The position numbers and the translations under genes are program-made. Positions 22,992-57,385 of a DNA stretch of 64,000 bases are shown here, one piece after another. This stretch comes from Candidatus Levybacteria bacterium RIFCSPHIGHO2_02_FULL_40_18 (lineage in GTDB: Bacteria; Patescibacteriota; Microgenomatia; Levybacterales; GWA1-39-11), in NCBI GenBank assembly GCA_001782235.1, contig MFOC01000007.1, positions 86,799 to 150,798 on the forward strand. Direction: 5' to 3'. Position 1 is the stretch's first letter, and each line of letters opens with the position of its first letter. The notes under the pieces are model-generated. The model did no database searches, was not told the DNA's origin, and was given only the letters and a program-made list of their open reading frames with translations.

Positions 22992-25049
22992 CTATGAAGA
23001 AACTATTTTTATTCCTTGAGAGCTTTCATCTAGGTTGGCTTGCGAAATTTTTTCTTGCTCTTGAACGGGAGACGTGTTAGCAGGGGGGGCTGTCATATCT
23101 TGCGCCTGTGTCTCTGGTTGCTCTCCGGGAGCGGATTGAGCGTCAGCGATGGAGGCATCCTCGCTGACAGGCGTGGGCGACGTAGCGGTGGCTGCCTCTT
23201 CTTCATGGGCAAGAATATCTTGAGGTTTTGAGGTGATCAGATCATATTCATATTGTGACGCTATGAACTGCGCGGTTACATGGTTTTGTCCTGCAAAAAG
23301 AAGTCCTTCCCCAACCTGGGCGGTTACTAAAAATTGTTTCTCTCCTTCTGATAAAAATAACGTTTTTGCCAAAACTTCAACTTCTGACGAGTTCTGTTTC
23401 AAGAGAATTTGGACTGAGGAGTTTGAAAGAATAGACTTTCCATAGTCGCTTGACAGGAAATCTTCAATATCCTGAGTAAGGGTTGTCACGCCAAGAAAAT
23501 ATTTTCTTGCGCGCTTTGCTATCCCTTGCAAAAAGGAGGCAGAATCAGGATGCTTCATAAGATACCATGCCTCATCAACCACCAAAATTCTTTTCTTAAG
23601 TTTTGTTCTGACGCGATTCCAAATAAAATCTAAAACCACGTGCATTGCAATTGGACGCAAAACATCCTCGAGCTGTTTAAGAGAAAAGACGGTTAATTGA
23701 TTTTTTATGTTGTAATTCGTCTGCTGATTAAATAGCCCAGAGAATCCACCTTTTACATATTTTTCAAGACGGAAAGAGAGATCCCTTGCCTCCGGCTCCT
23801 CCATATTAAGTAAGGTTTTATAAAGGTCCTCCAAGATCGGCGGCTCGTTTTTGTAGGTTGCAGGATCCGGCGTTATTCCCTTTTGCTTGTAACAAAGAAC
23901 AATCGCTCTATCTAAAATTGCCTCTTGTGTTGGAGACATCTCCCCAAGCATTGTTTTTAGGAGTCCGTGAAGAGATAATATTTTTATTCCAAGCTGGGCA
24001 TCTGTCATGTCTTCTTGGAGAAGGGCAAACGGGTTAATTTTTACCTCAGAACTTTTTGAGAAGTTTATATATTCGCCATCCAAAGCATGACATAAGGTTT
24101 TGTATTCATCTTCGGGATCTATTATTAAAATCTCGGCGTCAAACATCATTTGCCGCAAAATTTCAAGCTTTACCAAAAAAGATTTTCCGGCGCCCGATTT
24201 TCCAAAGACCACTTCATTTGCATTCTCAAAAGAAAAGCGGTCAACAATCGCAAGCGAATTATTTATGGTATTCACGCCATATAGAATTCCGTTTGGATGG
24301 GAAATTTCATAAGACGTAAATGGAAAAGTTGAAGCCAAAGACGTTGTGTCCATATTGCGGGTTATAAATAGCTTGTCGATTCCTGCTGGAAGACAGGTTT
24401 TGAATCCGTCTTCCATCTGAAGCGTTGCGGGTTTTACAACCAAAAGGTTTGAGGAAAGCAAAGACTGAAGTTCTTTGGTTTTTATATCTAAATTCTCAAC
24501 TGAATCTGCTGCCAGGGTTATATATAGACCAAATTGGAAAAACCGTTCAAGACCTCGCGCTAGCTCTTCTCGGAGCGCTATAGCATCTTCAAGCCCCGCC
24601 TGAATTTTAGGATCCGGCTCAAGCCCCTGTTCCGCATCTGACTGAAGTGTTGCCTCCATCTCGGAGATTTTCCTTCGCAGGTTTCCCAAAACATCCTTGC
24701 TTTCAACCGGATATACAAACATTGATATGTTCATTGTTTCTTTATAGTCAATAAGAATTGAGAGCCAGTTTGGAGAAACCTGACGAGGGTAATCTACAAC
24801 AAAAAACGTTCTGAAAAACTTATCGCCAACTCTTATATTTTTAAAATCTACCTCAACTGAGGAGGGGGATATAAGGTCAACAACAGAAACCGAGCCTGAC
24901 TTGAGAGCATTATATCCTTGCGAGGAGGCGCGTTTTTGAGCAGGCCCCGCACCGTCCCGGTGCGGGGCAGGGACTTTCTGGATCTGAGCGTTAGCGGCGG
25001 TTGGATCCGATATAGCCTGTGTCTGTTGTTTTTTATCTTCATCAAACAT
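22992..25049 (-). CDS. virB4: VirB4/TraC-family type IV secretion ATPase
   Basis: 685 aa; Walker A VVFGKSGAGKSF, Walker B KRILVVDEAWYL, ..FLGVTTLTQD..; N-terminal VirB4-type domain (..FFRTFFVVDYPRQVSPNWL..). Confidence 0.85.
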   Translation of the reverse strand: MFDEDKKQQTQAISDPTAANAQIQKVPAPHRDGAGPAQKRASSQGYNALKSGSVSVVDLISPSSVEVDFKNIRVGDKFFRTFFVVDYPRQVSPNWLSILIDYKETMNISMFVYPVESKDVLGNLRRKISEMEATLQSDAEQGLEPDPKIQAGLEDAIALREELARGLERFFQFGLYITLAADSVENLDIKTKELQSLLSSNLLVVKPATLQMEDGFKTCLPAGIDKLFITRNMDTTSLASTFPFTSYEISHPNGILYGVNTINNSLAIVDRFSFENANEVVFGKSGAGKSFLVKLEILRQMMFDAEILIIDPEDEYKTLCHALDGEYINFSKSSEVKINPFALLQEDMTDAQLGIKILSLHGLLKTMLGEMSPTQEAILDRAIVLCYKQKGITPDPATYKNEPPILEDLYKTLLNMEEPEARDLSFRLEKYVKGGFSGLFNQQTNYNIKNQLTVFSLKQLEDVLRPIAMHVVLDFIWNRVRTKLKKRILVVDEAWYLMKHPDSASFLQGIAKRARKYFLGVTTLTQDIEDFLSSDYGKSILSNSSVQILLKQNSSEVEVLAKTLFLSEGEKQFLVTAQVGEGLLFAGQNHVTAQFIASQYEYDLITSKPQDILAHEEEAATATSPTPVSEDASIADAQSAPGEQPETQAQDMTAPPANTSPVQEQEKISQANLDESSQGIKIVSS

Positions 25050-25170: not shown

Positions 25171-25812
25171 TTACAATATTACATTCTTAATATCATTCGA
25201 ATCAAAATCCAAAGTAATAAACTCCTGATTGAATAGTTCATAGTAAAGCTTTATAAGCTCATTAGTTGAAAGTGGTCGAGCAGAGAGTCCCATTCTCTCA
25301 ACTTGCGTAGTAACATTGTTTCTTTTTGAAATAAGCGCTGATTTTACCCTCTCATTTAATGCCAGGTTTTTTTTGTCCGTTGTTTTCGCTTGTGCAGCAG
25401 AGGCTACCCCAAGCTCCAGTTGAGAAAACGGGATTACAATATAAATCTTTTTGTCTAAAAGTCCCTCACCCTTTATCAGATCTTTTATAAAATCTCTATA
25501 TAATGTTAATTGTTCCTTGACCTTAGGGTTTTGGATTCCTGCTATTTTATCCTCGATTAGTTTTATGTAACTGACAAGATCTACGCGCCGTGAGACAATC
25601 AATATTTGAATAGATGAAGAGAGAGAATTAAGAAGAGACATGTAGCCATAGATTCTTGCGTTTTGTTCATCTTGTGAGAGAAGGAAAAAATTAACGGACG
25701 AAACTTCCATAATCATACAAGCATTGCCGCCTTTTAAGAAGACAATATCGTCCTGGATGTCAACAATCTCAGTAAAATCTTGCGTGCTTGAGTGAATCTT
25801 TGACTTAGCCAT
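25171..25812 (-). CDS. Stand-alone protein resembling the N-terminal domain of Gram-positive VirB4/TraC-type ATPases
   Basis: STQDFTEIVDIQDDIVFLKGGNACMIMEVSSVNFFLLSQDEQNARIYGYMSLLNSLSSSIQILIVSRRVDL..; start moved to ATG 25812 because the first 11 track codons read through repeat words. Confidence 0.45.
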   Translation of the reverse strand: MAKSKIHSSTQDFTEIVDIQDDIVFLKGGNACMIMEVSSVNFFLLSQDEQNARIYGYMSLLNSLSSSIQILIVSRRVDLVSYIKLIEDKIAGIQNPKVKEQLTLYRDFIKDLIKGEGLLDKKIYIVIPFSQLELGVASAAQAKTTDKKNLALNERVKSALISKRNNVTTQVERMGLSARPLSTNELIKLYYELFNQEFITLDFDSNDIKNVIL

Positions 25813-25880
25813 AATCGATATAGAAATTGGTTGTAGGATTTCCATTACTAATTTCCATTTTCCAATAACTATTTTCTAGT

Positions 25881-26954
25881 CTATGCTGTTGCTTGGACTC
25901 CGCCGAATAGTTCGCGTCTTAGTTTCTCACGTGCGTCGATTGACGTAGTTTCTAGTGGATTAAAAATCTCGCCGTTCAAAGTAATTTCCGTTGCTTCAAA
26001 TTCATGATTTTTCTGTGGGTCCTCAAAATAGATTTTATAGGTGCCGTTTTGAAGCTGAGTAGCAGAGGCAAATTGTCCAAGAGCATTTGTTTTAAAGGCC
26101 CTAACCGGAATGCCGTTTGAGTCAATTACCTCAACTAAAATATTAGGCAAGGTTTTACCTCGTGCATCACGGATAATTCCAAGCACTACATTGGGGACAT
26201 CGGGTAGAGTTGGAAAGCCTCCGGTAAGGCTTGGATTTGCACGCACAGGGGTTGGCTGTGGCAGAGTTGTTTCTTTTGGAATTTCATGCCGAGTTTCCTT
26301 CATTGAAAATTCAGCGTCCCCAGCCTCTTTTTTGGGGACAGGCGGGGGGCGTTGAGCTTCCTTTGCGATTTCATCAAGTCTTTTTTTGTTCAGCTCCGAA
26401 GCCGTGTTTTCTTGATTTACCACCATAGGACTTCCTAAAACCGGCGGAGTAGAGACCGCACTTGATCCGTTTGTAAAATAGCTATTGATGGTGTCCAATA
26501 TGCGAGTTTCTGATTGATCCGGACGGAAAGGAGAATTTCTGAGTCTGCTTAATAAAACTGCTCTTTTTTCATCTTGTGGATTCGCAACCTTTGCTATCCC
26601 GCCTTGGCGGGGGGCACCTTGCTTTTTGGGAAGCTCGCCAAACACTTGAAACGTTGCCAGATTTGCACCCCTTTTTCTATATAGATAGCGATTTTCAGAA
26701 GGAATTGCTTTTGCAAAGTTGACGAGCATTACATCCATTGGTCTTCCTTCAATTGGAACAAATGCAAGAGCAACTCCTACAAGCGCAAAAGCCGCCATAG
26801 TTGGAGCTTTAATTAAAATATTGATTGGAAGTACAAAAGCAACAGTTGTTAAAATTCCAAATCCGAGAAGATATAAAAATTGCTTTACAGTAATGCTTCC
26901 AATGAGTTTAAACTTGAAACCCGTAACATCTTGCGGAATAGGGTGATTTTCCAT
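25881..26954 (-). CDS. PrgI-family (VirB3-like) membrane protein fused to a C-terminal carboxypeptidase-regulatory-like beta-sandwich
   Basis: N-term HPIPQDVTGFKFKLIGSITVKQFLYLLGFGILTTVAFVLP..ALAFVPIEGRPMDVMLVNFAKAI (PrgI pattern, 2 TM); C-term VLGIIRDARGKTLPNILVEVIDSNGIPVRAFKTNALGQFA..GTYKIYF. Confidence 0.6.
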   Translation of the reverse strand: MENHPIPQDVTGFKFKLIGSITVKQFLYLLGFGILTTVAFVLPINILIKAPTMAAFALVGVALAFVPIEGRPMDVMLVNFAKAIPSENRYLYRKRGANLATFQVFGELPKKQGAPRQGGIAKVANPQDEKRAVLLSRLRNSPFRPDQSETRILDTINSYFTNGSSAVSTPPVLGSPMVVNQENTASELNKKRLDEIAKEAQRPPPVPKKEAGDAEFSMKETRHEIPKETTLPQPTPVRANPSLTGGFPTLPDVPNVVLGIIRDARGKTLPNILVEVIDSNGIPVRAFKTNALGQFASATQLQNGTYKIYFEDPQKNHEFEATEITLNGEIFNPLETTSIDAREKLRRELFGGVQATA

Positions 26955-31901: not shown

Positions 31902-32210
31902 CTATCTTGGGGCGAGCTGCCCTACGCCCGTGATTTGGGATATGGCGTTAAGGAAGAAAAATGAGAGAAAGATAAATATCAGACCAGCAAGCGCATAGAC
32001 TAAAGTTTTCCTAGCGCTTGATATCTTTTCAGGATCCCCTTCTGACATAACATATTTATATCCTGCATAAATTATCATAAAAACCGATACAATACCCGCA
32101 ATTACAATAAGGGCATTGATGATATTTTGAAGAACCACAGGGATACACGAAAGAGTTGCGACGCCCTCAGGGCTAACACAACTTCCCCAATCAGAAATAA
32201 TATCAAACAT
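31902..32210 (-). CDS. VirB2/TrbC-type T4SS pilin paralogue 1
   Basis: 102 aa, two TM; motif YAGYKYVMSEGDPEKISSARKTLVYALAGLIF. Confidence 0.65.
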   Translation of the reverse strand: MFDIISDWGSCVSPEGVATLSCIPVVLQNIINALIVIAGIVSVFMIIYAGYKYVMSEGDPEKISSARKTLVYALAGLIFIFLSFFFLNAISQITGVGQLAPR

Positions 32211-32260
32211 ATATATATTTTATAGATAACCTAATCTTAAAATCAATAAAGAAGGTTTTG

Positions 32261-32659
32261 TTATTTGAATTCAGGGAGGGTGAGGATCTTGAGATTTCTT
32301 AGGTCTCCAAGTCCAAGAGCCTGAAGCACAACATTTATAATGACAAAAGAAAGAGCTATTATAATAAGACCTATTACTGCGGCAATTATATGATTTCTTG
32401 CATCTGCAACTTTTTGTTTGTCTCCGCCTGATGTGATCCACTGAAATGCCCCAATGACTATAAAAAGAAGTGCCGCCAAAAAGGCTATAACTATTATAAA
32501 GGCAACCAAAAACCCTACCACTTGGCCAATGGTTGTTTCAGGAGGAATAACAGTTGCGCCCGCGGGAGTTTTGACTCCGGCATCTATCGCGGCAAAAGCA
32601 GGTGCGGCAAGTGAGGAATAAGAAATTAGAGCGAAGGCACCTGATAATATCTTTCTCAT
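32261..32659 (-). CDS. VirB2/TrbC-type T4SS pilin paralogue 2
   Basis: 132 aa; signal peptide ..SSLAAPAFA; GAFQWITSGGDKQKVADARNHIIAAVIGLII. Confidence 0.7.
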   Translation of the reverse strand: MRKILSGAFALISYSSLAAPAFAAIDAGVKTPAGATVIPPETTIGQVVGFLVAFIIVIAFLAALLFIVIGAFQWITSGGDKQKVADARNHIIAAVIGLIIIALSFVIINVVLQALGLGDLRNLKILTLPEFK

Positions 32660-32698
32660 AAATTAATTAGAGCATGTTTCAAACCCTTTGTCAATAGT

Positions 32699-33034
32699 CT
32701 ATGGATTAACAACTGTTTTAACACCAAACGCGCCTGCTACGAGATTTACAAAGACAAGCGCCAATGACATAACTATTAATCCAAATATCGCATAGATAAC
32801 TATTCTTCTTGCTTTATCCCATTTTTGCTTGTCCCCGGACGCTTGTAGCCAATAAAAACCCCCATAAACAATATAGAATAGAGAAAGAAAAATTCCAATA
32901 ATTAGCGCTAGTTGAATGAAAAAAGATGCAATATTGCCTATTGTAAATTGAGGTCCGGTAGGAATACCGGGAGGCGCCTCAATATCAACTTGGCCTCCGC
33001 CTGAACCCGGTACTTTTAATGATAAATATCTCAT
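32699..33034 (-). CDS. VirB2/TrbC-type T4SS pilin paralogue 3
   Basis: 111 aa; GGFYWLQASGDKQKWDKARRIVIYAIFGLIV. Confidence 0.65.
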   Translation of the reverse strand: MRYLSLKVPGSGGGQVDIEAPPGIPTGPQFTIGNIASFFIQLALIIGIFLSLFYIVYGGFYWLQASGDKQKWDKARRIVIYAIFGLIVMSLALVFVNLVAGAFGVKTVVNP

Positions 33035-33168
33035 ATTAGAAATTGGTTATTAATAATTAGAAAATAGTTCAGAAATTAGAAATTAGAAATTGGTTCTTGA
33101 TTTTTAACTATTTTCTATTCTCTATTTTCCATTACCATTTTCCATTCTCCTATAACTATTTTCTAATA
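33035..33168. repeat. Quasi-palindromic heptamer spacer (GAAATTA/GAAAATA family), orientation A
   Basis: Arms of about 62 nt, about 70% complementary; core 33084-33135 is the perfect reverse complement of 34625-34676. Confidence 0.8.
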
Positions 33169-33171
33169 TAT

Positions 33172-34530
33172 TTAGCGGGTGATTCCTGGTATTTTCAAAA
33201 TATCAACTCCTATTATCTCAAGTATAACAATTGAGAAAATGATGAACAACAATCCTACGACTGCAGAAGTTATCGTTTCCCTTGCTCCTGCGATTTTCTC
33301 TTTATCCCCTCCTGACGTTATTAATATATAGCCTGAGTAGATTATTATTATGATTGCCCCAAATCCCGCAATTGTTAATATAAATCTAAAAATTGTCTCA
33401 ATGAATCCTTTTGGAGTGACATTAATTGGTCCGATTGCCGAATTTATGGTTTTACAGTCACCAGGGCGAAGATTAATATCACCTTCCCCACTTCCACAAG
33501 GCAGTATTGCACCGGGAGCAACCTTATTTAACGCCGCAAGGTCTTTAAGAAAGGTACGATACTCCTCGCCTTTGGGATCTTGTCTATAATGCAGGGGATC
33601 ATCACATGTTCCACCTTCCTTATTATTAGCTGATGTGATTATGCATGTTGCTTCATAATATGTAAATCCACCTTTACAACCAGGTGGGTTTGGAACTGAA
33701 GGAAATACGCTGACGCTTACCCAAGCCCATGCGGTTGGGTTATCATCATCAACCTGTTCTCTTACAGTTATTGTGTATTTTCCAGCGGAAAGTTTTTGAA
33801 ACTCAATTCTTTTTCCACTCTCATTCTCGCTCGTAAAGGCAAGACATCCTCCCTGTCGGTAACCATTGTTTCCAATCATCAAAATTTGGTAGTTATTCCT
33901 TCTCCACCCTCCAGGCCTGAACGAATTATTAATGGCATTGCCTAGATTTACGGTGATTGTTGCGCCAGGTCTCAAGTCTGTACCAGGATAGATTGATAGA
34001 GAAGGATAAGTTCTATGAACATAAAAACCTCCTATTTTAATTGGTTTGTAATAGGCATCTTTTATTAGGGTTCCGATACTCAGCGCATAGACATTCCCAC
34101 CATGAAAATAGACAGTGCCACCACAGTCAGTTTTGACCTTGCTACTTCCTGCTCCGCATACCCCCTTAACAGTTACATTGCCTTTGCTATCTGATTTTAG
34201 CCCTAAGATAAAATTGTCCAATATATCTGGGCCGTTTATCCCAGGTACAAATCCTTCTTCTCTAAGACATGCGCTGTCTCCCGTACAAATTATATAACCA
34301 GACTTATCACTCTCAAGTCCATAAAAAGTAATATCAATTATTTTATCTGCTTCATCAAGACATTCAGGTCGCTCGCTTGTTGAAAATTCAACGTCTGTTC
34401 CCTCAAGAATTGTCTCAGTGGGAGAAGGACTTGTCTGACATGGATCAAGCTGGGCAAAAGCAGGAGTTTTGAAAAGTAAAAATATCGCGGCGAAGAGGAA
34501 GGACGCGGTTAATATAAGAAGCTTCTTCAT
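33172..34530 (-). CDS. Secreted Cys-rich protein with a C-terminal T4SS-pilin domain (candidate pilus adhesin)
   Basis: Start taken at MKKLLILTASFLFAAIFLLF (signal peptide). About 380-aa domain with >14 Cys. C-terminus IIIIIYSGYILITSGGDKEKIAGARETITSAVVGLLFIIF has the same motif as the three short pilins. Confidence 0.65.
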   Translation of the reverse strand: MKKLLILTASFLFAAIFLLFKTPAFAQLDPCQTSPSPTETILEGTDVEFSTSERPECLDEADKIIDITFYGLESDKSGYIICTGDSACLREEGFVPGINGPDILDNFILGLKSDSKGNVTVKGVCGAGSSKVKTDCGGTVYFHGGNVYALSIGTLIKDAYYKPIKIGGFYVHRTYPSLSIYPGTDLRPGATITVNLGNAINNSFRPGGWRRNNYQILMIGNNGYRQGGCLAFTSENESGKRIEFQKLSAGKYTITVREQVDDDNPTAWAWVSVSVFPSVPNPPGCKGGFTYYEATCIITSANNKEGGTCDDPLHYRQDPKGEEYRTFLKDLAALNKVAPGAILPCGSGEGDINLRPGDCKTINSAIGPINVTPKGFIETIFRFILTIAGFGAIIIIIYSGYILITSGGDKEKIAGARETITSAVVGLLFIIFSIVILEIIGVDILKIPGITR

Positions 34531-34572
34531 ATATTTATGATAGGCAGAAGGAGTAGGGGAAGTCAACATCCG

Positions 34573-36103: not shown

Positions 36104-36505
36104 TTAACGATCATGGTAATTCTTCCAAGATTTCTTAAGATTCGTTAGTTGCTTACAGGAGATTATATATAAATTTATGACTTCGTTGCAAAGTTTAGGA
36201 TCGACGTATTTACTATAAACATCTATGCATACTGATAAATGATTTATCATTTCGTAACATTCACCTATCGTATCATCTATATATTTACTCCATGCTTTTT
36301 TCTGATATCTTTTGGCAAACCCCTCAGCAAGTATGGCTGGTCCTGCTTTGCAACTACGTCTCATTTGATCAACAAGATCAAACTTCTCTTCCTTCGGTAG
36401 ATTAGTAATTATTTCCTTCAATACTGTGACCATTGCCTTATATAAATTTTGGTACACCTCAAGATCTTGAAAAGTTCTGATTGGCTTTTTCTTTCTATTT
36501 TCCAT
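36104..36505 (-). CDS. Four-helix-bundle protein (23S rRNA intervening-sequence protein family)
   Basis: ..IRTFQDLEVYQNLYKAMVTVLKEIITNLPKEEKFDLVDQMRRSCKAGPAILAEGFAKRYQKKAWSKYIDDTIGECYEM.. fits the family pattern; start moved to ATG 36505 because upstream codons are repeat words. Confidence 0.75.
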   Translation of the reverse strand: MENRKKKPIRTFQDLEVYQNLYKAMVTVLKEIITNLPKEEKFDLVDQMRRSCKAGPAILAEGFAKRYQKKAWSKYIDDTIGECYEMINHLSVCIDVYSKYVDPKLCNEVINLYIISCKQLTNLKKSWKNYHDR

Positions 36506-43168: not shown

Positions 43169-45673
43169 ATGAAATTACAAGGACTTTCGCAAAAAGTATT
43201 TTTGGATCGCTATTCTTTAAAAGATAAGAAGGGGAAGGCTCTCGAAAAAACCCCTGACCGCATGTGGAGGAGAGTGGCCGCGGCTGTTGCCGGTGTTGAG
43301 ACAACTTCCCAAAATAAGAAGCGCTGGGAAAAGGAATTTTATTCTGCGATGCAGGATTTTAAATATGTTCCCGGAGGAAGAATTTTGGCAGGCGCTGGGA
43401 CCGGTTTTGAAGTTACCTACTATAATTGCTTTGTAATTCCATCCCCCAAAGACTCACGTGAAGGGATTCTTGAAACCCTCAAGCAAATGGTAGAGATTAT
43501 GGCTCGCGGTGGGGGAGTCGGAATAAATCTTTCTTCCTTGCGACCGCGCGGGTTTCGCGTTGAAAAAGTAAACGGCTTCTCTTCAGGTCCCTGCAATTGG
43601 GCAGAACTTTTCTCCGTTGCAACAAAAGACATTATTCAACAGGGAGGTAGTCGCCGAGGGGCATTAATGCTTATGCTCTGGGATTGGCATCCTGATATTG
43701 AAGAATTTATTACTGTTAAACAAGATCTTTCCCGTATAAATGGCGCAAACCTTTCTGTCTGTGTTTCAGATTCTTTCATGGAGCAGGTTGAGCGCGATGG
43801 AGATTGGGACCTTGTCTTTCCGGACAGAAGAGATCCCGAGTATGATACAAAATGGGACGGAGATATATACACATGGCGTGCAATGGGCAAAAAGGTTGTA
43901 AAACATAAGACTATCAAAGCGCGCTACATGTGGGATCTAATTGCCGAGGCCGCCTGGAGATCTGCAGAGCCGGGAGTTGTCTTCATGGAACGATACAATA
44001 AACTGCACAATAATTGGTATTGGAACCGAATTAACTGCGTAAATCCATGCGGAGAGGAGGGCTTGCCGCCGTGGGGAGTTTGCAATCTTGGATCAATTAA
44101 TCTTTCAGCTCTTGTTCACGGCGATAATATTGACAAGAAGGGAAAGTTTGATTTTTCTCTACTTAAGAAAGTCACTCGGGCCGCTGTCCGATTTCAAGAC
44201 AATGTTATTGAAATGGATCCTTATATTTTTGATGGGATCAAAAAGACCCAATATGAAGGAGAAAGAAGAATAGGTCTTGGGACAATGGGTCTTGGAGATG
44301 CTTTGATTAAGCTTCATTTAAGATATGGGTCACCTGAATCCCTTCAGTTTATCGATCGCGTTTATAGAATTATAAGAGACGAGGCGTATAGGACCTCAGT
44401 TGAAATTGGCGCTGAGAAAGGATCTTTTGGAAAGTTTGACAAAAAACTTTATCCTCAGGGCAAGTTCATACAACTGTTGCCTGCTGATATTCAGAATGGA
44501 ATTAAGAAAAAAGGCATTAGAAATTCCATACTTCTTATGCAAGCGCCAACCGGGTCAACATCTCTTCTTGTTAATACAACCTCTGGAATTGAGCCGGTTT
44601 TTGAATTCGAATTTGTGAGGCGCGATAGAATAGGCGAGCATGTTGTCCGCCACTACTTATATGAACAATGGTATAAAAAACACGGCAAGGATATTGAGGC
44701 AGGCAAAATTGAGCGGCCCGATTTCTTTGTGTCGGCGAATGATCTGACGCCAGAAGATCATGTCAGGGCTCAGGCAATAATTCAAAAATATGTTGATGCA
44801 TCTATTTCAAAAACAGTTAATGCGCCTAATGCCCACACAGTTGAAGAAGTAAAAAAGCTTTACAACATGGCATACAAACTTGGTTGCAAAGGCGTTACAT
44901 ATATGAGAGAAGGATCCCGCGCAGGGGTCTTGGAACGCATAGATGATAAGAAGAAGGAAGAAGCTCCAAAGGTTGAAGTAAAAGCCCCACCGGTTACAAA
45001 GAGGCCGCCTGTTATGTATGGCTTGACTTACAAAACCCAAACGCCACTTGGAGACGCATTCATTACTATCAATAAAGATGAAGGAGGAAATCCCTTTGAA
45101 GCCTTTATAACCATTGGCAAATCAGGTTCTGATGTTGCTGCCATGACTGATGCTTTGGGCCGAATGATTTCCCTGACTCTTCGCCTTCAGAGTCCTATAC
45201 CGGCACGAGAACGCGTCAGACAGATTGTCGCACAGCTTTCGGGAATCGGCGGCATGAGAACAATCGGATTTGGAGAAAACAGGGTTCGGTCTGTGCCTGA
45301 TGCTGTAGCAAAAGTTTTAGCAGAGGAATTTGGATTTTCAGTCAACGGGATAGTTCGTGATCTAAAGACTTCGGAAAATACCGTAACAAACGGCCAGGTA
45401 GTTTCGGTATCGAATGGCGCAAACGGAAACGGAATTGTGGCAAAAACAAATGGCATCGTCACAAGTGCCAATGGTATAGCAAGTCCTGCGACTGCGCTAA
45501 ATGAATCGCAAAGCGAGGCGGCAGAGCAGACAGTTGTTATGGAACAATTAAGTATTGGGAGTGAGACCTCGACGCATAGCGCATTTGATTTTTGTCCCTC
45601 ATGCGGAGCAGCAACGCTCGCGCATGAAGAGGGATGCAAAAAATGCTATAGCTGCGGCTATAGTGAATGTTAA
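43169..45673 (+). CDS. nrdJ: Class II (adenosylcobalamin-dependent) ribonucleotide reductase
   Basis: 834 aa; ..GGGVGINLSSLRPRG.., ..NPCGEEGLPPWGVCNLGSINL.., ..APTGSTSLL..; C-terminal Cys4 finger CPSCG..CKKCYSCG. Confidence 0.9.
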   Translation: MKLQGLSQKVFLDRYSLKDKKGKALEKTPDRMWRRVAAAVAGVETTSQNKKRWEKEFYSAMQDFKYVPGGRILAGAGTGFEVTYYNCFVIPSPKDSREGILETLKQMVEIMARGGGVGINLSSLRPRGFRVEKVNGFSSGPCNWAELFSVATKDIIQQGGSRRGALMLMLWDWHPDIEEFITVKQDLSRINGANLSVCVSDSFMEQVERDGDWDLVFPDRRDPEYDTKWDGDIYTWRAMGKKVVKHKTIKARYMWDLIAEAAWRSAEPGVVFMERYNKLHNNWYWNRINCVNPCGEEGLPPWGVCNLGSINLSALVHGDNIDKKGKFDFSLLKKVTRAAVRFQDNVIEMDPYIFDGIKKTQYEGERRIGLGTMGLGDALIKLHLRYGSPESLQFIDRVYRIIRDEAYRTSVEIGAEKGSFGKFDKKLYPQGKFIQLLPADIQNGIKKKGIRNSILLMQAPTGSTSLLVNTTSGIEPVFEFEFVRRDRIGEHVVRHYLYEQWYKKHGKDIEAGKIERPDFFVSANDLTPEDHVRAQAIIQKYVDASISKTVNAPNAHTVEEVKKLYNMAYKLGCKGVTYMREGSRAGVLERIDDKKKEEAPKVEVKAPPVTKRPPVMYGLTYKTQTPLGDAFITINKDEGGNPFEAFITIGKSGSDVAAMTDALGRMISLTLRLQSPIPARERVRQIVAQLSGIGGMRTIGFGENRVRSVPDAVAKVLAEEFGFSVNGIVRDLKTSENTVTNGQVVSVSNGANGNGIVAKTNGIVTSANGIASPATALNESQSEAAEQTVVMEQLSIGSETSTHSAFDFCPSCGAATLAHEEGCKKCYSCGYSEC

Positions 45674-45699: not shown

Positions 45700-45838
45700 T
45701 AAGAGTATATATTTGGTAATCGCCGTGAAAGTCGGCGGAACTGCCGGTACTGTAATATCCAGAAAACAATATATACTTTCATCCCCGAGCAGGGTTAAGC
45801 GAAGAAGAATTCCTCTCGGGTTATCGAGAGGTTTTTTT
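45700..45838 (+). promoter_or_regulatory. Candidate cis-regulatory RNA leader (cobalamin-riboswitch-like core + terminator/antiterminator) ahead of the adenosyltransferase gene
   Basis: Closing helix AGTATATATT(45703-12)/AATATATACT(45768-77). Inside, CGCCG-UGAAAGU-CGGCG and ..CUGCCGGUACUGUAA resemble the GGUG..AA.UCC hairpin and CCCGCCACUGUAA core of B12 elements. CCCGAG (45784-89) can pair with CUCGGG in the terminator. Confidence 0.3.
45812..45838 (+). terminator. Intrinsic terminator
   Basis: CCTCTCG-GGTTAT-CGAGAGG followed by TTTTTTT. Confidence 0.75.
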
Positions 45839-45856: not shown

Positions 45857-46408
45857 ATGCCTATATATACAAAGACAGGGGATCGCGGAAAAACATCGCT
45901 CTTTTCAGGAAAAAGAGTCTGGAAGCATGATCTCCGTGTCGAAGCATACGGAACCGTTGACGAGCTAAATACTATTTTGGGGCTAGCGCTTGCAGCGCTT
46001 CCTCACAAGAAAAATAAACAAATAGCATATCTTCGTGACTTAATTTTAGAGGTCCAAAAATCCCTTTTTTACATTGGTTCTTATTTTGCCGACCTTCCTG
46101 ACACTCTCGAAGAGATAGATTTGATAGGTAAAACTAATCGGTTCGAAAAAGAAATCGATCTAATGACGAACAAGATGCCAAAGCTTGCGAACTTTATTTT
46201 TCTTGATGGCGGATTGGCCGGGAGTTTTCTCCAGAATGCCCGGGCAATTGCCAGACGGGCAGAAAGGCAAATTGTGAAACTTTCTAAAAAAGAGAAGATA
46301 GATGTGAGACTACTTAAATATATAAACAGGCTCTCCGATTTGTTTTTCACTATGGCGCGTTACGCAAATCATATTGAAGGGAAAAAAGAAAGGATTTGGG
46401 AAAGATAA
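45857..46408 (+). CDS. pduO: ATP:cob(I)alamin adenosyltransferase, PduO type
   Basis: MPIYTKTGDRGKTSLFSGKRV.KHDLRVEAYGTVDELN..; 183 aa. Confidence 0.9.
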   Translation: MPIYTKTGDRGKTSLFSGKRVWKHDLRVEAYGTVDELNTILGLALAALPHKKNKQIAYLRDLILEVQKSLFYIGSYFADLPDTLEEIDLIGKTNRFEKEIDLMTNKMPKLANFIFLDGGLAGSFLQNARAIARRAERQIVKLSKKEKIDVRLLKYINRLSDLFFTMARYANHIEGKKERIWER

Positions 46409-51581: not shown

Positions 51582-52217
51582 TTACTTTAGTGGCTTTCTT
51601 CCTATCATCTCGGCAATAATTTGAACAATTCTGGCCGGTTCCGGCGCGCGGTCAAACTCAAAGTTTGCTTGAGTCGCCGCGGTTTGTACTAACACGTCCC
51701 CATAATTAAATACTGATCTTACAGCTCCGACTTGTGAGTAAGAAACGTCCTCGATAAGATTAATTTTTGTTTCACTGGCGTGCTTAAAAAGAATACCTGA
51801 AACATCAAGATCAATGATTCTTTTGTTAGTTACAAGACCTACATTAAAATACCAAATAGTAAACTCAACCAAAATGAATCCGGCCACAACAAGATAATAA
51901 AAAAGGACCGAAACTACTTGAGTTTGTATGGCAATCTGGAAAAAGGGAGAAAACAAATCGTTGAAAAGAAAAAGGAGCGGAGGAATAAAGATTAATATCA
52001 GAGCGGTAAGAATCCAAGGGACATTGGTTATGAGATCTCGTCTTACGAGAAGCATTATTTCTTCATCTCCCTCCTGATTTTCAAACACTACATTATCGGG
52101 ATTGATTCCAAGCGAGGAATAAAAGTGGACGGATTTTTTGTGGGAAGGTTCTGGTGTACCTTGCGGTATCCGTTCTGAAATAACGAATTCACCACTAAGA
52201 CCATTTTCCCCTGGCAT
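51582..52217 (-). CDS. Membrane protein with a bacterial PH-like (YdbS/T-type) domain; paralogue of 59153..59938
   Basis: Two TM then ..FTIWYFNVGLVTNKRIIDLDVSG..YGDVLVQTA..FEFDRAPEPARI. Confidence 0.5.
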   Translation of the reverse strand: MPGENGLSGEFVISERIPQGTPEPSHKKSVHFYSSLGINPDNVVFENQEGDEEIMLLVRRDLITNVPWILTALILIFIPPLLFLFNDLFSPFFQIAIQTQVVSVLFYYLVVAGFILVEFTIWYFNVGLVTNKRIIDLDVSGILFKHASETKINLIEDVSYSQVGAVRSVFNYGDVLVQTAATQANFEFDRAPEPARIVQIIAEMIGRKPLK

Positions 52218-52328: not shown

Positions 52329-54053
52329 TTATTGGCGTTCTACATTGAATAGTGGACCGACGATTTGAATATTTGCCGGGGCTCTGAGATTAAACCAGTT
52401 TTTAAATTCATCACCTGAAAAACTTTGTGATCCGCCGTCCCCCAAGATACCTACAGAAGTTGTTCGGCCAGCCGAAAAATCTGCTCCAATAGAAACGTCT
52501 GAGATATTTGAAAAAGGAGTTACTCCTCGATTTGAGAGCTCTTGCCGAACGCGAGCTTCATCCCATGTATCGGTACCCGCAGGATTTGGCTTATCAGTTT
52601 GATAAAGATGCTCTCCAGCGGATGAGTCAGCTTTTGCAAGCAAGATCACATTCATAATGTCTGCTACTTCAGAAGATTTAAGCCAGGCGGTTTTATTATA
52701 CTCTGATCGAGACCCCCAATCGCAATAAAACCACGGAGATTCGCGATCATAGGCATTTGAAAAAAGATCAGAGAATCCCGAGGCCGCGCCTGTTGTTGTA
52801 TCTATTGCATGTTTTGTCCAAGAGGTCGCGCTCCAGCCTGGAAGTTCTGACGTCGATAAAATATATCCGCCGTGAGTTGAAGAGTACCAAGCCTTAATTG
52901 GCGATCCGCCCTGAACCATGACCCAGCCGCGCGTGCTGTTCACTGCCTCTTCCCATGCGCCGCCTTTAGGTTCGGGTTTAAAGACCTGACAGGATTGAGT
53001 GGTGCAAATAGATCCCGCTCCATTGTTTGTATAAGAAAGAGCATAGGAGCGAGCGGCCACAGCCTGAGCTTTTAAGGCTTCCATTGCAAATGATGAAGGC
53101 ATTTCATAAATTCTTTTTACGTACTCCTCGATATTATAAGAGCCGTATCCCTCAACATTAATATTTATATCTTGGGAGTAATCTTTTTTCAGTTCGTAAT
53201 TTACATAATATGCTTCAAGGATTTGTTCTGCAGACTGTCCGGCGCGGGCTCTTCCGTCCGCTCCATATTGATTAAGACCGGTTCTGTTTGGGACGCCGTA
53301 GGTGAAGAAGGCGATTCTGGGAGAAAATCCCGGATCGCGGGTTCTATCATCAACACAGGCAGGAGCCGCGGTCGCGGCAGATCTTGGAATGTTTAATGCG
53401 GCAAGCCTTTGACCTAAAATTTCTTTTTGGCGGGCAGATAACTTTGCAATTTCACTTGACAATGTTGCTTGATATGCTTTTGCGCCCTTTACAACTTTTT
53501 CGATTTCTCCCTTTTCCTGTGCAAGCCTTTCTTTAATGCTCGCAAATTTTATTTCTTCCTCTTCAAGTTTTGCTTTTCGCGTTTCAAGATCAACAATCTT
53601 TAATGCAATGGAGGTTATCGTTTCTTTATCGCGGTCAGCATCTCTTTTTTGATAAATAATGATTCGAGTCATTTCAGCAGCATCTGCCTGGGAAATAAAG
53701 ACGAGAAGAGGGGAGAGAAAATAGCTTTTTATGTAGTAGTCGCGGACGGTTTTATTAAAAATAATTTTACTCTCTTCAAGCTCTTGATAGCCTTGTTCAA
53801 TGAATTTCTTCTTTTCTGCCAAATCGCGCTCAATTGCGGCAACCTGATTTTCTATACCTGTAAGTTGTTTTTGCAAGCTATTAAGTTGTGATTCAAGGGG
53901 TGCCGTTGCTTTTTGAGAGGCAGAAAGCGCTGCCTGAAGTTCGGTCAGTTTTTTATTGATATCGTCAAGCTCATCAGAGAAAACTTGAGGAACAACAAAA
54001 AGTTTGAACGCGAACAAAATACCCACAAGGAGGAGCAAGAAAAATCTTCCCAT
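52329..54053 (-). CDS. SpoIID/LytB-domain protein with an N-terminal coiled coil
   Basis: ..EALKAQAVAARSYALSYT..CTTQSCQVF.. ..AWYSSTHGGY..; signal/TM + about 200-aa coiled coil. Confidence 0.75.
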   Translation of the reverse strand: MGRFFLLLLVGILFAFKLFVVPQVFSDELDDINKKLTELQAALSASQKATAPLESQLNSLQKQLTGIENQVAAIERDLAEKKKFIEQGYQELEESKIIFNKTVRDYYIKSYFLSPLLVFISQADAAEMTRIIIYQKRDADRDKETITSIALKIVDLETRKAKLEEEEIKFASIKERLAQEKGEIEKVVKGAKAYQATLSSEIAKLSARQKEILGQRLAALNIPRSAATAAPACVDDRTRDPGFSPRIAFFTYGVPNRTGLNQYGADGRARAGQSAEQILEAYYVNYELKKDYSQDININVEGYGSYNIEEYVKRIYEMPSSFAMEALKAQAVAARSYALSYTNNGAGSICTTQSCQVFKPEPKGGAWEEAVNSTRGWVMVQGGSPIKAWYSSTHGGYILSTSELPGWSATSWTKHAIDTTTGAASGFSDLFSNAYDRESPWFYCDWGSRSEYNKTAWLKSSEVADIMNVILLAKADSSAGEHLYQTDKPNPAGTDTWDEARVRQELSNRGVTPFSNISDVSIGADFSAGRTTSVGILGDGGSQSFSGDEFKNWFNLRAPANIQIVGPLFNVERQ

Positions 54054-54096
54054 CGGAAATTCTATTATAGCAGATGTTATAGGTGCGAGAGAATTA

Positions 54097-54190
54097 TGGG
54101 TGCGCTTGGATTCGAACCCCGTACAAAACTTACTTGTTCCCGAGGCTTACAGCCTCGCGTCACAAGAGCGTTTCTACGGGGCAAGCCAAA
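54097..54190 (-). other. tRNA-like remnant / structured element (not a foldable canonical tRNA)
   Basis: Contains CGAGG-CTGTAAG-CCTCG (GTA anticodon-like hairpin) and GGGGTTCGAATCC, but the T-stem has two G.A mismatches, there is no GG D-loop and no acceptor pairing. Instead CCCCGTA(5')/TACGGGG(3') pair. Confidence 0.3.
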
Positions 54191-54198
54191 GACATCTG

Positions 54199-54269
54199 TA
54201 GGCCCGGAAGGAGTCGGACCTTCGTGTCGACTTTATAAGAGTCGTGTCCTACCGTTGAACGACGGGCCT
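54199..54269 (-). tRNA. tRNA-Ile (anticodon TAT), atypical
   Basis: AGGCCCG/CGGGCCT acceptor (A1:U72), D-arm GTTC-AACGGTA-GGAC, CGACT-CTTATAA-AGTCG, 4-nt variable loop, T-arm GAAGG-TCCGACT-CCTTC (C at position 55). Confidence 0.65.
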
Positions 54270-54335: not shown

Positions 54336-54371
54336 ATACCTTAATACTTTATACTTGATACTGAATACTTA
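54336..54371. repeat. ATACTTN heptamer array abutting the stop of 54372..56789
   Basis: ATACCTT|AATACTT|TATACTT|GATACTG|AATACTT. Confidence 0.55.
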
Positions 54372-56789
54372 CTAAATGGAGCCGCCAGGTCCGAGCCTTC
54401 CTTCTGGGCCTTTGTCAACGCTTGATTGAATATCGCCAAGCACTTCGTATAATCGCGATCTCTTAGCAATTTCTGCCTCAACCAATTCTTTTTGTTTTCC
54501 GTATTTGAGTCTTGATAATTCTCTAATTAATTCTGCGACTCTTGGATTTTCAAGCTTTTTCTCGGCAACCAAATCTCGAGTTAAGTCCAATGAAAATGGC
54601 GTGGTAGGCTCAGAATTAATCAGAGTTTTTACGTATGCATGGAATCTTTCAACATTAATTAAATCCGCTTCGTTAAACACCGGTTGAAATTCATGTTGCA
54701 GGTAATTTGCATCAGAAACTCCTACCCGAAATGAAATTAATGTTCCGACATTTCCAAAGATTGCGTTTTTAACATCCTCCTCAATTTGACCGATAAACTG
54801 GTTCGCAACCGTTAGGTTTAATCTATATTTTCGGGCCTCTGACAAAATTTGTCCAAAATCGGGAGTCGCAAAATTCTGAAACTCATCAACGTAAAGATAG
54901 AAATCCCTACGTTGGTCTTGCGGCACATCTTGCCTTGACATTGCTGCGGCAAGAATTTTTGGAACCAAAATTAAACCCAAGAAGGAGGAATTATCTTCTC
55001 CAATTTTTCCTTTGGCAAGAGAGATAAGTAAAATCTTTCCCTGGTCCATAACTTCTCGCAGTGAAAATGCGCTTTTTGATTGCCCTATGATATTTCTCAT
55101 CATGCGGTTTGTGACAAAGCGGCCGAATTTTGAAACTATATAATCCAACACCTCAGACTTATGAAAATCTGAGGTTTGCGCAATCTGATCAGTCCAGTAG
55201 CGGCGAACAATTGGATCTTGAACTTTCGGCAAGAGCTCCTGCACAAAGGAAGAATCGGTTAGGACTCGGACAACCTCAACAAAAGTATTCCCCGGCTCTG
55301 ACATAACAGTGTACATGGCATTTCTTATAGCATGCTCAAAACGCGGTCCAATAATGCCAGTTTTATTAGGATCATATAATTTGTACATAAGTCCTATTAT
55401 TGACGTAATTATTAGGTCTTTTTGCTCTTCGGTTTGAACGTCCAACATGTTTAGTCCCATTGGGCGTTCCGTGTCTCCCGGATCAAAAAGAATTACGTCT
55501 TCTGCGCGCTCCGGAGGAATGAGAGGCAAGAGCATATCGATTGTGTCATGAGGATCAATAAAACAAACTCCATATCCAGCGCGAATGTCTTGTAAGATCA
55601 TGTCTTTTAAAAATTCTGATTTTCCTACGCCTGTCTTACCTATAATATACATATGACGGCGTCTGTCATCCTCCCCGATATAAACAGGCCGCGAGATCCC
55701 GCGATAAATGCTTTTCCCAGTGTATAATCCGGCGGAAGGAATATTTGCGGGTGCAGGCGCGACTCGGGCACCTAGCCAATGGATAGCAGGTGTCTCAACC
55801 GTTTTATTTGGAAAATGAAAAATTGTTGCAAGTTCATCTGTTGTTAAAACTCCGGGGTTGTTTGGCACAAGCGGAAGTTGACGATAGATAAAATCAATCA
55901 TTGCCATTCCCTTAAACAATCTATGCTTCACTTTTTCAAAGGAGTTAAAAGAAGAGAACTGTGAGAATGAGCCCACAATATTTGTAAGATGTGCTTCTGC
56001 GGATTCCTTTGTTGAAGAAGCAGTAAGGATTCTAACATGCGTTTCAAATCCGGGCTTTGTAATCTTTTGCTCAATTGCCTCAAGTTCTTTTTGATCAACC
56101 GAGTATTTTGCAGTTTCAGGATTCGCCTCTCTCTTTTTAGTGGTTGTAATGTATGATCGGCCGCTTTTTTTCCAAGCGTCGCCGGTAAGGGTTATCAAAA
56201 TTTGTAAAGCCGCAGCTTCTCCTTCCTGCATTTTTCCTAATGTGCTTGTAATTGATGAAAGAGGATCAACCGGAAGATCCTTATAGGTTTTTATTGGAAG
56301 ATAATGAGCTTTTGAGAGCTTTAGTTGTGCGTAGGCGATTTTACCTGGATTTTCAAAAAGATTATATTCTTCAACCTGAAGAATCTGCGCGTCTGGATAG
56401 CTTCCATGAATCTGCTTTTCAACCATGTCGCGAAGCCTATTTGGCACGCCAACATAAAATCTTATATCTTGAGGTTTTGCGACTATTTCAAAAGATATAA
56501 TGTCGGGAACTTTAAGAAATCCAAAAATTCCCTTAGTTCCTGCGATTGAAGTAAGACCTGAGAATAATTGATCTGCAGCGTCTATTTTTATCTCGTTTTC
56601 GCGTGGGAGTGATACCTCAAGAAGAGATGAGTCAAGAGCCTTCTCGTGTCTTTCTTGGGATTTTCGCCAAAACCCTAATGCCAAAAAAATCCCTAACAGG
56701 CACGCAATAACTACGGATGCCATTAAAAAGGCTAGGAGAAAAACAAAGACTAGATTAATAATGGCTTGCGAAAAAGCATCAAGCTGCAC
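54372..56789 (-). CDS. Type IV coupling-protein-like ATPase (VirD4/TraD/TraG family)
   Basis: 805 aa; N-terminal TM pair; Walker A HMYIIGKTGVGKSEFL, Walker B FYLYVDEFQNFAT, ..RKYRLNLTVANQ.. Confidence 0.6.
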   Translation of the reverse strand: MQLDAFSQAIINLVFVFLLAFLMASVVIACLLGIFLALGFWRKSQERHEKALDSSLLEVSLPRENEIKIDAADQLFSGLTSIAGTKGIFGFLKVPDIISFEIVAKPQDIRFYVGVPNRLRDMVEKQIHGSYPDAQILQVEEYNLFENPGKIAYAQLKLSKAHYLPIKTYKDLPVDPLSSITSTLGKMQEGEAAALQILITLTGDAWKKSGRSYITTTKKREANPETAKYSVDQKELEAIEQKITKPGFETHVRILTASSTKESAEAHLTNIVGSFSQFSSFNSFEKVKHRLFKGMAMIDFIYRQLPLVPNNPGVLTTDELATIFHFPNKTVETPAIHWLGARVAPAPANIPSAGLYTGKSIYRGISRPVYIGEDDRRRHMYIIGKTGVGKSEFLKDMILQDIRAGYGVCFIDPHDTIDMLLPLIPPERAEDVILFDPGDTERPMGLNMLDVQTEEQKDLIITSIIGLMYKLYDPNKTGIIGPRFEHAIRNAMYTVMSEPGNTFVEVVRVLTDSSFVQELLPKVQDPIVRRYWTDQIAQTSDFHKSEVLDYIVSKFGRFVTNRMMRNIIGQSKSAFSLREVMDQGKILLISLAKGKIGEDNSSFLGLILVPKILAAAMSRQDVPQDQRRDFYLYVDEFQNFATPDFGQILSEARKYRLNLTVANQFIGQIEEDVKNAIFGNVGTLISFRVGVSDANYLQHEFQPVFNEADLINVERFHAYVKTLINSEPTTPFSLDLTRDLVAEKKLENPRVAELIRELSRLKYGKQKELVEAEIAKRSRLYEVLGDIQSSVDKGPEGRLGPGGSI

Positions 56790-57114
56790 GTTCTCTCCTT
56801 TCCTGTTGTTTTCTCATAAATATTGAGCCCCAAAAAGAAGGATCATCAAATTTCCCAGGTCCCTGTGCTCTAGGGGGTTTAACTGTAGCCTCTGATTTTA
56901 TTTCGAACTGTGAGGAATCAAGAGCTTGAGGCTCTGTTGAAACTTGCGTAAGTTCTCCCCTTGTCTCCACACCGTGCGATGAAAGCTCTGAATGAATTCT
57001 TGCTAAATGTTCCATATCGCTTACTGTTTCGACATGAGGCGAAACTTCAGGAGGAACAAAAGGCGTAACCGCTTCAGCGCTTGGTTTTACAATTTCTTTT
57101 GTGCTGTCTGGCAT
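56779..57114 (-). CDS. Hypothetical protein (111 aa) translationally coupled to the coupling-protein-like gene
   Basis: Start moved to ATG 57114 because the track N-terminus overlaps tRNA-Ser; 11-nt overlap with the downstream gene. Confidence 0.4.
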   Translation of the reverse strand: MPDSTKEIVKPSAEAVTPFVPPEVSPHVETVSDMEHLARIHSELSSHGVETRGELTQVSTEPQALDSSQFEIKSEATVKPPRAQGPGKFDDPSFWGSIFMRKQQERRERAA

Positions 57115-57197
57115 GGATACATGATAGCACAAGAGCCGTTCGGCGGCAACCAAACCAGCCTCATAAAAAGGTAACAAAAAGGCAACAAAAATGAGGG

Positions 57198-57281
57198 CGG
57201 AGGGTGTGGGAGTCGAACCCACTAGCCCCTTGCGGGGCGTGGTTTAGCAAACCACTCTCGTGACCGTCTGAGTCACCCTCC
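57198..57281 (-). tRNA. tRNA-Ser (anticodon GCT)
   Basis: GGAGGGT/ACCCTCC acceptor, GTGGT-TTGCTAA-ACCAC, long variable arm GCCCCGCAAGGGGC, GTGGG-TTCGACT-CCCAC. Confidence 0.9.
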
Positions 57282-57300
57282 AAAACTAGAACGGAGTGTG

Positions 57301-57385
57301 CGGAGGGTACAGGATTCGAACCTGTGAAGGGATTGCTCCCTCGAGTTTTCAAGACTCGCGCAATTGGCCTCTATGCGAACCCTCC
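57301..57385 (-). tRNA. tRNA-Ser (anticodon TGA)
   Basis: GGAGGGT/ACCCTCC acceptor, CGAGT-CTTGAAA-ACTCG, variable arm GGGAGCAATCCC, ACAGG-TTCGAAT-CCTGT. Confidence 0.9.

Follow-up and report, generated by a model that had tools for sequence, protein, structure and literature searches.

The 64-kb chromosomal window analysed here, from Candidatus Levybacteria bacterium RIFCSPHIGHO2_02_FULL_40_18, encodes an 805-aa ATPase (54372..56789, minus strand) with a predicted hybrid architecture, in which a transmembrane (TM) helix is followed by a 300-residue domain resembling the N-terminal domain (NTD) of VirB4 and by a motor like that of type IV coupling proteins (T4CPs), carrying an all-alpha insertion. 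To our knowledge, canonical coupling proteins do not contain the middle domain. The ATPase is a chromosomal core protein of Patescibacteria, vertically inherited, and its gene overlaps a small upstream open reading frame (ORF) whose product is a probable partner or adaptor subunit. An earlier note on this DNA had described a coupling protein without a relaxase, remote from type IV secretion system (T4SS) genes, and had asked what substrate it could recruit. Coupling protein homologues far from virB4 and without a relaxase, as well as the substrate question, have already been published for Patescibacteria (Quinonero-Coronel et al. 2025, PMC12102498). Therefore, by describing a hybrid architecture and a small partner ORF, our analysis adds to the published picture in an incremental way. 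By the window we mean this whole 64-kb stretch, to which our searches of the genome were confined.

The ATPase gene starts with a GTG codon, 5 nt downstream of a Shine-Dalgarno sequence (AGGAG), and its product carries the two motifs that had been read in it, GKTGVGKS at residue 384 (Walker A, nt 55617-55640) and YLYVDEF at residue 631 (Walker B, nt 54879-54899). It is also, as claimed, the only VirD4/TraD-like ATPase of the window: tblastn searches for a second such gene yielded no more than a 34-aa match with the VirB4 gene, at the P-loop. The RecA-like nucleotide-binding domain spans residues 355-740 (54570..55727, minus strand). In the AlphaFold2 model, it is interrupted by the all-alpha insertion (residues ~454-582, nt 55044-55430), whose helices lie between strands 432-435 and 586-590, that is, between Walker A and Walker B. 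The C-terminal domain (CTD) of VirB4 likewise has a helical insertion, and so this feature is not exclusive to T4CPs. In an alignment of 55 homologues (33-80% identity), Walker A, Walker B and the downstream motor residues are invariant, and the motor is thus likely to be a catalytically intact RecA-type ATPase.

The affinities of the motor were assessed with hidden Markov model (HMM) profiles. In Pfam, the window protein narrowly passed the gathering scores of TraG-D_C (25.4 vs 22 bits) and TrwB_AAD_bind (24.0 vs 20.5), and also passed that of DUF87, the HerA central domain (24.1 vs 23.2), whereas FtsK_SpoIIIE stayed below its threshold (16.3 vs 24). Among the NCBIfam models, TraD and VirD4-like ones ranked top, far under their curated cut-offs (SXT_TraD, 50.8 vs 366 bits), and no match was obtained between the protein and the VirB4 models PF03135 and PF19044 (Pfam) or TIGR00929 (NCBIfam). 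A single-sequence phmmer search against the PDB gave an E-value of only ~0.2. The alignment of the 55 homologues was then used as a profile against the PDB, retrieving TrwB (2.3e-7) and DotL (1.3e-6) ahead of HerA (1e-3), and was scanned member by member. All 55 members matched TraD (SXT and TOL models), 51 matched TrwB_AAD_bind, 50 the CD1115 VirD4-like model and 49 DUF87; 27 matched T4SS-DNA_transf, 15 matched VirB4_CagE (TIGR00929) weakly, 12 the NCBIfam HerA models, two FtsK_SpoIIIE and one PF19044 (P-loop_TraG). Weak matches to the archaeal DNA-import ATPases CedD (46/55) and CedB (9/55) were found as well.

Judged by these profile matches, the motor is closest to T4CPs (TraD/VirD4/TrwB), ahead of VirB4 and HerA and far ahead of FtsK. 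A comparison of T4CP with FtsK and HerA families, which the earlier note had proposed as a check, thus ranked the T4CP models best. The assignment that would have spoken against a coupling protein was not obtained, because HerA and FtsK are both less close to the motor than T4SS coupling proteins are. By structure, the modelled motor is equally near to the VirB4 CTD, HerA and TrwB, the alignments extending over 359-386 residues for TrwB and Cag-beta vs 333 for the VirB4 CTD.

The region between the anchor and the motor (residues 54-352; 55734..56630, minus strand) corresponds to the precomputed Pfam family DUF8128, a name that we did not find in the literature searched. This domain was modelled separately (predicted local distance difference test, pLDDT, 88.5; predicted template modelling score, pTM, 0.88), and the model was compared with the PDB using Foldseek. 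The top matches were 14 chains of TrwK, with E-values from 3e-9 to 8e-7. CTD-only VirB4 structures, TrwB and HerA were all missing from the matches of the DUF8128 model, indicating that the matched part is the VirB4 NTD. This likeness did not extend to sequence: hhalign assigned the DUF8128 domain and VirB4 a homology probability of 0.6%, and no profile match to VirB4 was found in the PDB. A short exception is the linker motif LxTxELAxxFHFP of the DUF8128 family, which aligns with TTSxASTFPFTS of the window VirB4. When the profile of the DUF8128 family was compared with that of the window VirB4, hhalign gave 62% probability, over the motor domain only.

A Kyte-Doolittle scan detected a sole hydrophobic segment in the ATPase, at residues ~9-41 (56667..56765, minus strand), within a helix that the AlphaFold2 model places at residues 2-52. 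The segment is followed by RKSQERHEK and, because of these positive charges after the helix, we infer that it anchors the protein in the membrane and that the remainder is cytoplasmic.

The protein, thus, shares features with each of several known ATPase groups. Like T4CPs, it has an N-terminal anchor, a Walker A of the form GxTGxGKS, a DPxGD-type motif, a Walker B ending in DEF and an all-alpha insertion in the same topological position, and its top HMM and PDB-profile matches are T4CPs. Canonical T4CPs usually have two TM helices, whereas the ATPase has one. It further differs from them in the VirB4-NTD-like domain between anchor and motor, in falling under all NCBIfam curated cut-offs, in the lack of a relaxase or Dtr gene among the scanned ORFs of the window, in the 20 kb that separate it from the nearest HMM-supported T4SS gene, and in being a phylum-wide chromosomal protein rather than mobile-element cargo. 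The identification as a coupling protein is supported in part, the motor being T4CP-like by HMM and the protein as a whole not being a canonical member. With VirB4, TrwK and TraC, it shares the two-domain layout, a similar size, the VirB4-NTD fold and the linker motif. Unlike them, it is not matched by VirB4 models, has its own TM helix and is encoded 29 kb from the window VirB4, to which it is distantly related. In contrast to HerA and FtsK-SpoIIIE, it shows no accessory domain of the HerA or FtsK type; FtsK_SpoIIIE is sub-threshold in Pfam and the NCBIfam HerA models match a minority of relatives.

The family is large: searches at E <= 1e-3 yield 22,495 representative clusters, of which 5,887 remain at E <= 1e-30. 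We scanned one genome per GTDB species and retrieved more than 599 matches, the best 80 of which are full-length orthologues; the locus counts given below use these 80. Orthologues at 38-75% identity are present in ~16 candidate phyla or classes. Identity is ~75% in Levybacteria, 55-65% in other Microgenomatia, 45-50% in Dojkabacteria, WWE3 and Saccharibacteria, and 38-42% in the Berkel-, Doudna-, Magasanik-, Uhr-, Falkow- and Staskawiczbacteria groups. Since identity falls stepwise with taxonomic distance, the gene is a vertically inherited part of the core chromosome. Neither a neighbour conserved across the phylum nor a relaxase emerged from the clustering of ORFs in the 80 loci. Some relatives (P0180, P0141 and P0145) are considerably longer: forms of ~1,440 aa have a C-terminal motor ~50% identical to the window motor, preceded by an unrelated N-terminal region of ~950 aa with a TPR-like match, whereas those of 1,500-2,000 aa are extended at length beyond the motor at the C-terminus.

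The gene order around the ATPase recurs in relatives as a unit comprising the small ORF, the ATPase, tRNA-Ile, a SpoIID-domain protein, a bPH_2 protein, a DUF5657 protein, a protein of ~590 aa and SmpB. In the window, a coiled-coil SpoIID-domain envelope protein (52329-54053) and a bPH_2 membrane protein (51582-52217) are encoded on the minus strand. This SpoIID/bPH_2 block accompanies the ATPase in Levybacteria. Dojkabacteria have it as well, with its order permuted and with an array of T4SS pilin genes adjoining it. Since the same block, permuted, follows pilins in that group, its position suggests that SpoIID, bPH_2 and DUF5657 are T4SS-associated. Two of the Dojkabacteria loci, L046 (1686-12361) and L045 (2078-12298), are headed by five and two T4SS pilin genes, respectively, and continue with DAGK (scanned in L046 only), SpoIID, bPH_2, DUF5657, a protein of 778-922 aa, SmpB, a small ORF and the DUF8128 ATPase. 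In locus L026, the ATPase is 7 kb from VirB4 and a PrgI-like gene, making this the only one of the 80 loci with VirB4 within 10 kb. To judge by contigs of equal length, VirB4 and the ATPase seem to share the same long contigs in relatives.

Immediately upstream of the ATPase lies an ORF of 111 aa (56779..57114, minus strand), with an ATG start and a stop codon that overlaps the GTG start of the ATPase by 11 nt. The translational coupling had been recognised before, and the ORF had been termed an orphan, which holds only in part: homologues were found in four clusters, all from Levybacteria. The predicted protein is hydrophilic and rich in Pro and Glu, has a C-terminal FWGSIFMRKQQERR helix-like tail and contains no TM segment. 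The ratio of nonsynonymous to synonymous substitution rates (dN/dS), computed with two relatives, was 0.17-0.21 for the 111-aa ORF, consistent with purifying selection, vs 0.04 for the ATPase. The 11-nt overlap is retained in both L085 and L086. A promoter-like site, TTGCCG-17 nt-(TG)TATCAT, was detected by a consensus scan at 57121..57149 (minus strand). Two relatives whose ATPases are ~90% identical show no change in the hexamers, the extended -10 element (TGnTATCAT) or the ATG, in contrast to the spacer, which varies. Because 6 nt separate the end of the -10 element from the ATG at 57114, the putative promoter suggests a leaderless transcript for the two-gene unit. The existence of homologues, the purifying selection, the kept overlap and the conserved promoter indicate that the 111-aa ORF is a real, fast-evolving gene rather than a spurious one, and its product is a probable partner or adaptor subunit of the ATPase.

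Small ORFs in this position are not restricted to Levybacteria. A same-strand ORF of <=210 aa immediately upstream of the ATPase (gap <=30 nt) was observed in 39 of 75 loci, and in 58 of 80 when gaps of up to 130 nt were allowed. They are conserved within classes, and those of Microgenomatia and Dojkabacteria have a common C-terminal motif, xLP[ILM][TS]...W-LAEW..R..K.

We tentatively favour, at somewhat less than an even chance, the view that the ATPase serves the relaxase-less T4SS near dnaA in Patescibacteria as its second motor, at the VirD4 position. It would probably form a ring at the inner face of the membrane, like its relatives. Its VirB4-like N-domain would dock it onto membrane partners, much as the R388 VirB4 NTD holds the tails of VirB3 and VirB8. 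A substrate other than a relaxase-DNA complex, either a protein or DNA handled in another way, would have the small partner protein as its adaptor or regulator.

The published data provide the setting for this proposal. Among 3,035 Patescibacteria genomes, VirB4 was detected in 2,417, and 5,713 VirD4-like T4CP homologues were detected in 2,918 (96%), which amounts to ~2 per genome; 109 relaxases were found in 103 genomes, 39 of the 109 near a t4cp gene (PMC12102498). The ATPase fits exactly the description of these homologues, being VirD4-like, far from virB4 and without a relaxase, although that study classes them by HMM only. The Patescibacteria T4SS lacks relaxases and, in the one species tested, is essential for epibiotic growth (PMC10633639, PMC12102498, PMC12857230). 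Wang et al. 2023 (PMC10633639) reported that the T4SS cluster and the pilins are essential and recognised neither a coupling protein nor a relaxase in the cluster, a picture that is the same in a 2025 review (PMC12857230). The text of PMC12102498 that was searched does not describe a DUF8128 or VirB4-like N-domain, a TM helix or a small upstream ORF, and PMC10633639 and PMC12857230 contain no description of a VirB4-like N-domain or a small upstream ORF.

Several points weigh against placing the ATPase in the T4SS. The link between the family and the T4SS is drawn from sequence, context and models, and the N-domain likeness to VirB4 is structural only, on AlphaFold models. The protein reaches none of the NCBIfam curated cut-offs. 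Only three of the 80 loci are near T4SS genes, only 148 of the 5,713 T4CP homologues were reported near virB4, and the homologues occur in more genomes than VirB4 does (2,918 vs 2,417 of 3,035; PMC12102498). In S. epibionticum, the t4cp homologue, possibly the DUF8128 orthologue, was reported to be non-essential, while T4SS genes were essential (PMC12102498). As for the partner, the small upstream ORFs of different classes showed no homology by hhalign (0.1-0.3% probability), and in compact genomes, having a small co-directional neighbour is nothing out of the ordinary.

The wider spread than VirB4 and the reported non-essentiality fit a T4SS-independent role, and the alternative that survives best is built on them. 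In this alternative, which we consider possible though unlikely, the ATPase is an exapted membrane DNA translocase, acting for instance in chromosome segregation or in resolving dimers alongside a recombinase of the Xer type, or in the uptake or export of DNA. Exaptation of T4CP homologues was raised by the authors who counted them in 96% of genomes, compared with 80% for VirB4 (PMC12102498). The neighbourhood is also suggestive: a convergent XerC/D-like tyrosine recombinase gene (Phage_integrase and SAM_1 domains) lies 0-3 kb downstream of the ATPase in 19 of the 80 loci, in Microgenomatia and Dojkabacteria (for example, L046 12532-13419, minus strand, as well as L011, L013 and L024), dnaX lies downstream in 14, and a ribonucleotide reductase (RNR) gene lies upstream in 10. 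The weak CedD and CedB matches point in the same direction. However, the 64-kb window contains no Xer gene, and the linkage could be inherited synteny. Moreover, the ATPase has no FtsK gamma-type or other DNA-binding domain and only two of its 55 relatives match FtsK_SpoIIIE; a replacement of FtsK is further argued against by a separate ftsK annotated in TM7x. Outside T4SS machines, no VirB4-like NTD is known to date, and comEC-dependent transformation is not essential in S. epibionticum.

A more far-reaching version of the T4SS reading, which we regard as speculative and rather improbable, takes the DUF8128 family to be an ancient lineage of T4SS-type ATPases, the third of its kind, in which a VirB4-type N-domain has been kept on a motor of the coupling-protein type, so that VirB4 and VirD4 would be bridged by a living intermediate. 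In this version, the ATPase and its fast-evolving adaptor would pick out, for the essential T4SS without relaxases, a non-relaxase substrate (host-directed proteins or DNA), or the ATPase would drive a separate membrane translocation.

With low probability, the ATPase may instead be a divergent second VirB4 paralogue, an ATPase for assembly or pilin extraction in which the N-terminal helix replaces VirB3, the T4CP-like HMM matches being an artefact of divergence. VirB4 is the top structural match of both halves, and the 805-aa length, the two-domain layout and the alignment of the linker motif with the window VirB4 agree with this idea, as do the four pilin genes of the window and the small ORF overlapping the ATPase start, which recalls the virB3-virB4 order. 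Yet that small ORF lacks a TM segment, unlike VirB3, and the ATPase is encoded outside the T4SS locus, which has its own conserved VirB4. The profiles disagree as well, with VirB4_CagE and P-loop_TraG recovering few of the relatives that the TraD models recover in full, and with no better than the 62% probability obtained against the VirB4 of the same genome; T4CP structures also align over more residues than VirB4 does.

That the ATPase is of the HerA/FtsK type and unrelated to type IV secretion, for instance a defence or repair helicase, was already disfavoured by the profile searches and is very unlikely. HerA is similar in structure and DUF87 matches most relatives, but DUF87 is a generic P-loop module that matches the window VirB4 too, the NCBIfam HerA models recover only 12 of the 55 relatives, neither a HAS-barrel-like nor a nuclease-partner signal emerged, the N-domain has its match in VirB4 and not in HerA, and no NurA, Sir2 or defence-type neighbour recurs in the 80 loci. 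Finally, the idea of a canonical coupling protein of an integrative and conjugative element (ICE) or mobilisable element, with its relaxase and integrase elsewhere and the tRNA genes as integration site, draws on the tRNA genes on both sides of the unit, the tRNA-like fragment nearby and the few Patescibacteria that do have relaxases, 39 of 109 of these near a t4cp gene (PMC12102498), but is largely refuted, hardly any probability being left to it, by the same tRNAs and neighbours flanking the gene in several Levybacteria-type relatives, by orthologues that track taxonomy across the phylum, by a dN/dS of 0.04 without a shift in GC content, by the absence of an integrase or relaxase among the scanned window ORFs, and by the rarity of relaxases (103 of 3,035 genomes; PMC12102498).

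For a receptor of the substrate, the unlinked VirD4-like gene is the obvious candidate, although this gene has been reported to be non-essential. Handles for interaction predictions and mutants are offered by the joining of a TM helix to a domain like the VirB4 NTD and a T4CP-like motor, and by the fast-evolving partner to which the ATPase is translationally coupled. A hybrid ATPase also bears on the divergence of VirB4 and coupling proteins.

The window belongs to the core chromosome of a Patescibacterium of Levybacteria type. It has flat GC content and carries dnaG, rpoD, ruvABC, dnaA, dnaN, nrd and smpB/ssrA. A protein identical to the ATPase also occurs on JGI contigs from groundwater. Its T4SS genes include one for a VirB4-family ATPase (22992..25049, minus strand; 685 aa), which has a P-loop_TraG match of 117 bits and a weak CagE_TrbE_VirB match and whose homologues are named VirB4 in the sources, an HMM-supported PrgI/VirB3-like gene (25881-26954), and four T4SS_pilin (VirB2-like) genes with PF18895 matches (31902..34569, minus strand). 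dnaA (17554-18966) and dnaN (19152-20249) lie directly beside the VirB4/PrgI-like genes (together 17554-26954), which agrees with the origin-proximal placement of T4SS genes reported for Patescibacteria, where they are often near dnaA/dnaN (PMC12102498). The distance of the ATPase from the T4SS-like locus had been given as 13 kb. This figure depends on the polytopic ORF at 39722-41335 being VirB6; the ORF has at least six hydrophobic segments and gave no HMM match. Measured to HMM-supported genes, the distance is 20 kb to the pilins (ending at 34569) and 29 kb to VirB4.

The genes between the T4SS-like region and the ATPase are those previously listed for it, namely NrdR, a B12-type RNR, a PduO-type adenosyltransferase, a ComF-like gene, tmRNA and SmpB. 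An AdoCbl-II (B12) riboswitch was found at 45704-45777 (plus strand; 39.8 bits vs a gathering score of 36.5), between the B12-type RNR (43169-45673) and the PduO-type cobalamin adenosyltransferase (45857-46408). A relaxase, an integrase or another ICE hallmark was detected neither among the scanned window ORFs nor in the precomputed annotation of 57.4-64 kb. Because of the housekeeping neighbours, the conserved synteny including the tRNAs, and the absence of a relaxase or integrase among the scanned ORFs, the ATPase unit is neither an island nor part of a mobile element.

Both tRNA-Ser genes that had been placed upstream of the unit were recovered. tRNA-Ser(UGA) (57301-57385, minus strand) was called by default ARAGORN and Rfam. 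tRNA-Ser(GCU) (57198-57281, minus strand) was missed by default ARAGORN and by the whole-window Rfam scan, but was detected by a local scan (39.1 bits vs a gathering score of 29) and called by aragorn -ps. The pair adjoins the ATPase in six Levybacteria-type loci. The downstream neighbour of the ATPase is a tRNA-Ile(UAU) gene (54199..54269, minus strand), called by default ARAGORN and Rfam and equipped with a conserved promoter-like sequence of its own. tRNA-Ile with a UAU anticodon is uncommon in bacteria. Relatives have a tRNA-Ile(UAU) at the same position, on either strand (including L085, L086 and L003-L007), and the window sequence differs from that of the same-site tRNA-Ile(UAU) of close relatives. 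As marks of integration, the tRNAs were rejected, being conserved syntenic neighbours in Levybacteria and given the flat GC content and the dN/dS of 0.04.

Of the other elements that the earlier note had placed downstream, a tRNA-like remnant corresponds to a structured spacer (54095..54198, minus strand) in which no tRNA was called by the tRNA tools. The spacer forms a stable hairpin (fold z = -4.3), and 24 nt of it (54097-54120) resemble the 3' end of the tRNA-Ile(UAU) of relatives, such as L085; it is possibly a decayed older copy of tRNA-Ile. The heptamer array is a CTTAATA repeat of 4.6 copies with 80% match at 54340..54371, just past the stop codon. Its Tandem Repeats Finder (TRF) score is weak (43 vs the usual threshold of 50) and it is not conserved in the close relatives L085 and L086, so that we rejected it as a functional element; it is probably an AT-rich spacer.

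Two further observations concern the surroundings of the pilin genes and the database records. A gene for a four-helix-bundle protein (36104-36532, minus strand; TIGR02436, 48 bits), which also has a sub-threshold match to Avd of diversity-generating retroelements (19.7 vs 80 bits), adjoins an ORF of 1073 aa (36481-39702, plus strand), and the large ORFs nearby (1004, 1073 and 447 aa) have no family matches. Many GTDB or TPA (third party annotation) records with the ATPase in a Patescibacteria-like context (L005, L008-L010, L012, L013 and others) are titled 'uncultured Gammaproteobacteria', 'Bathyarchaeia' or 'Bdellovibrionales' and are probably mislabelled or mis-binned.

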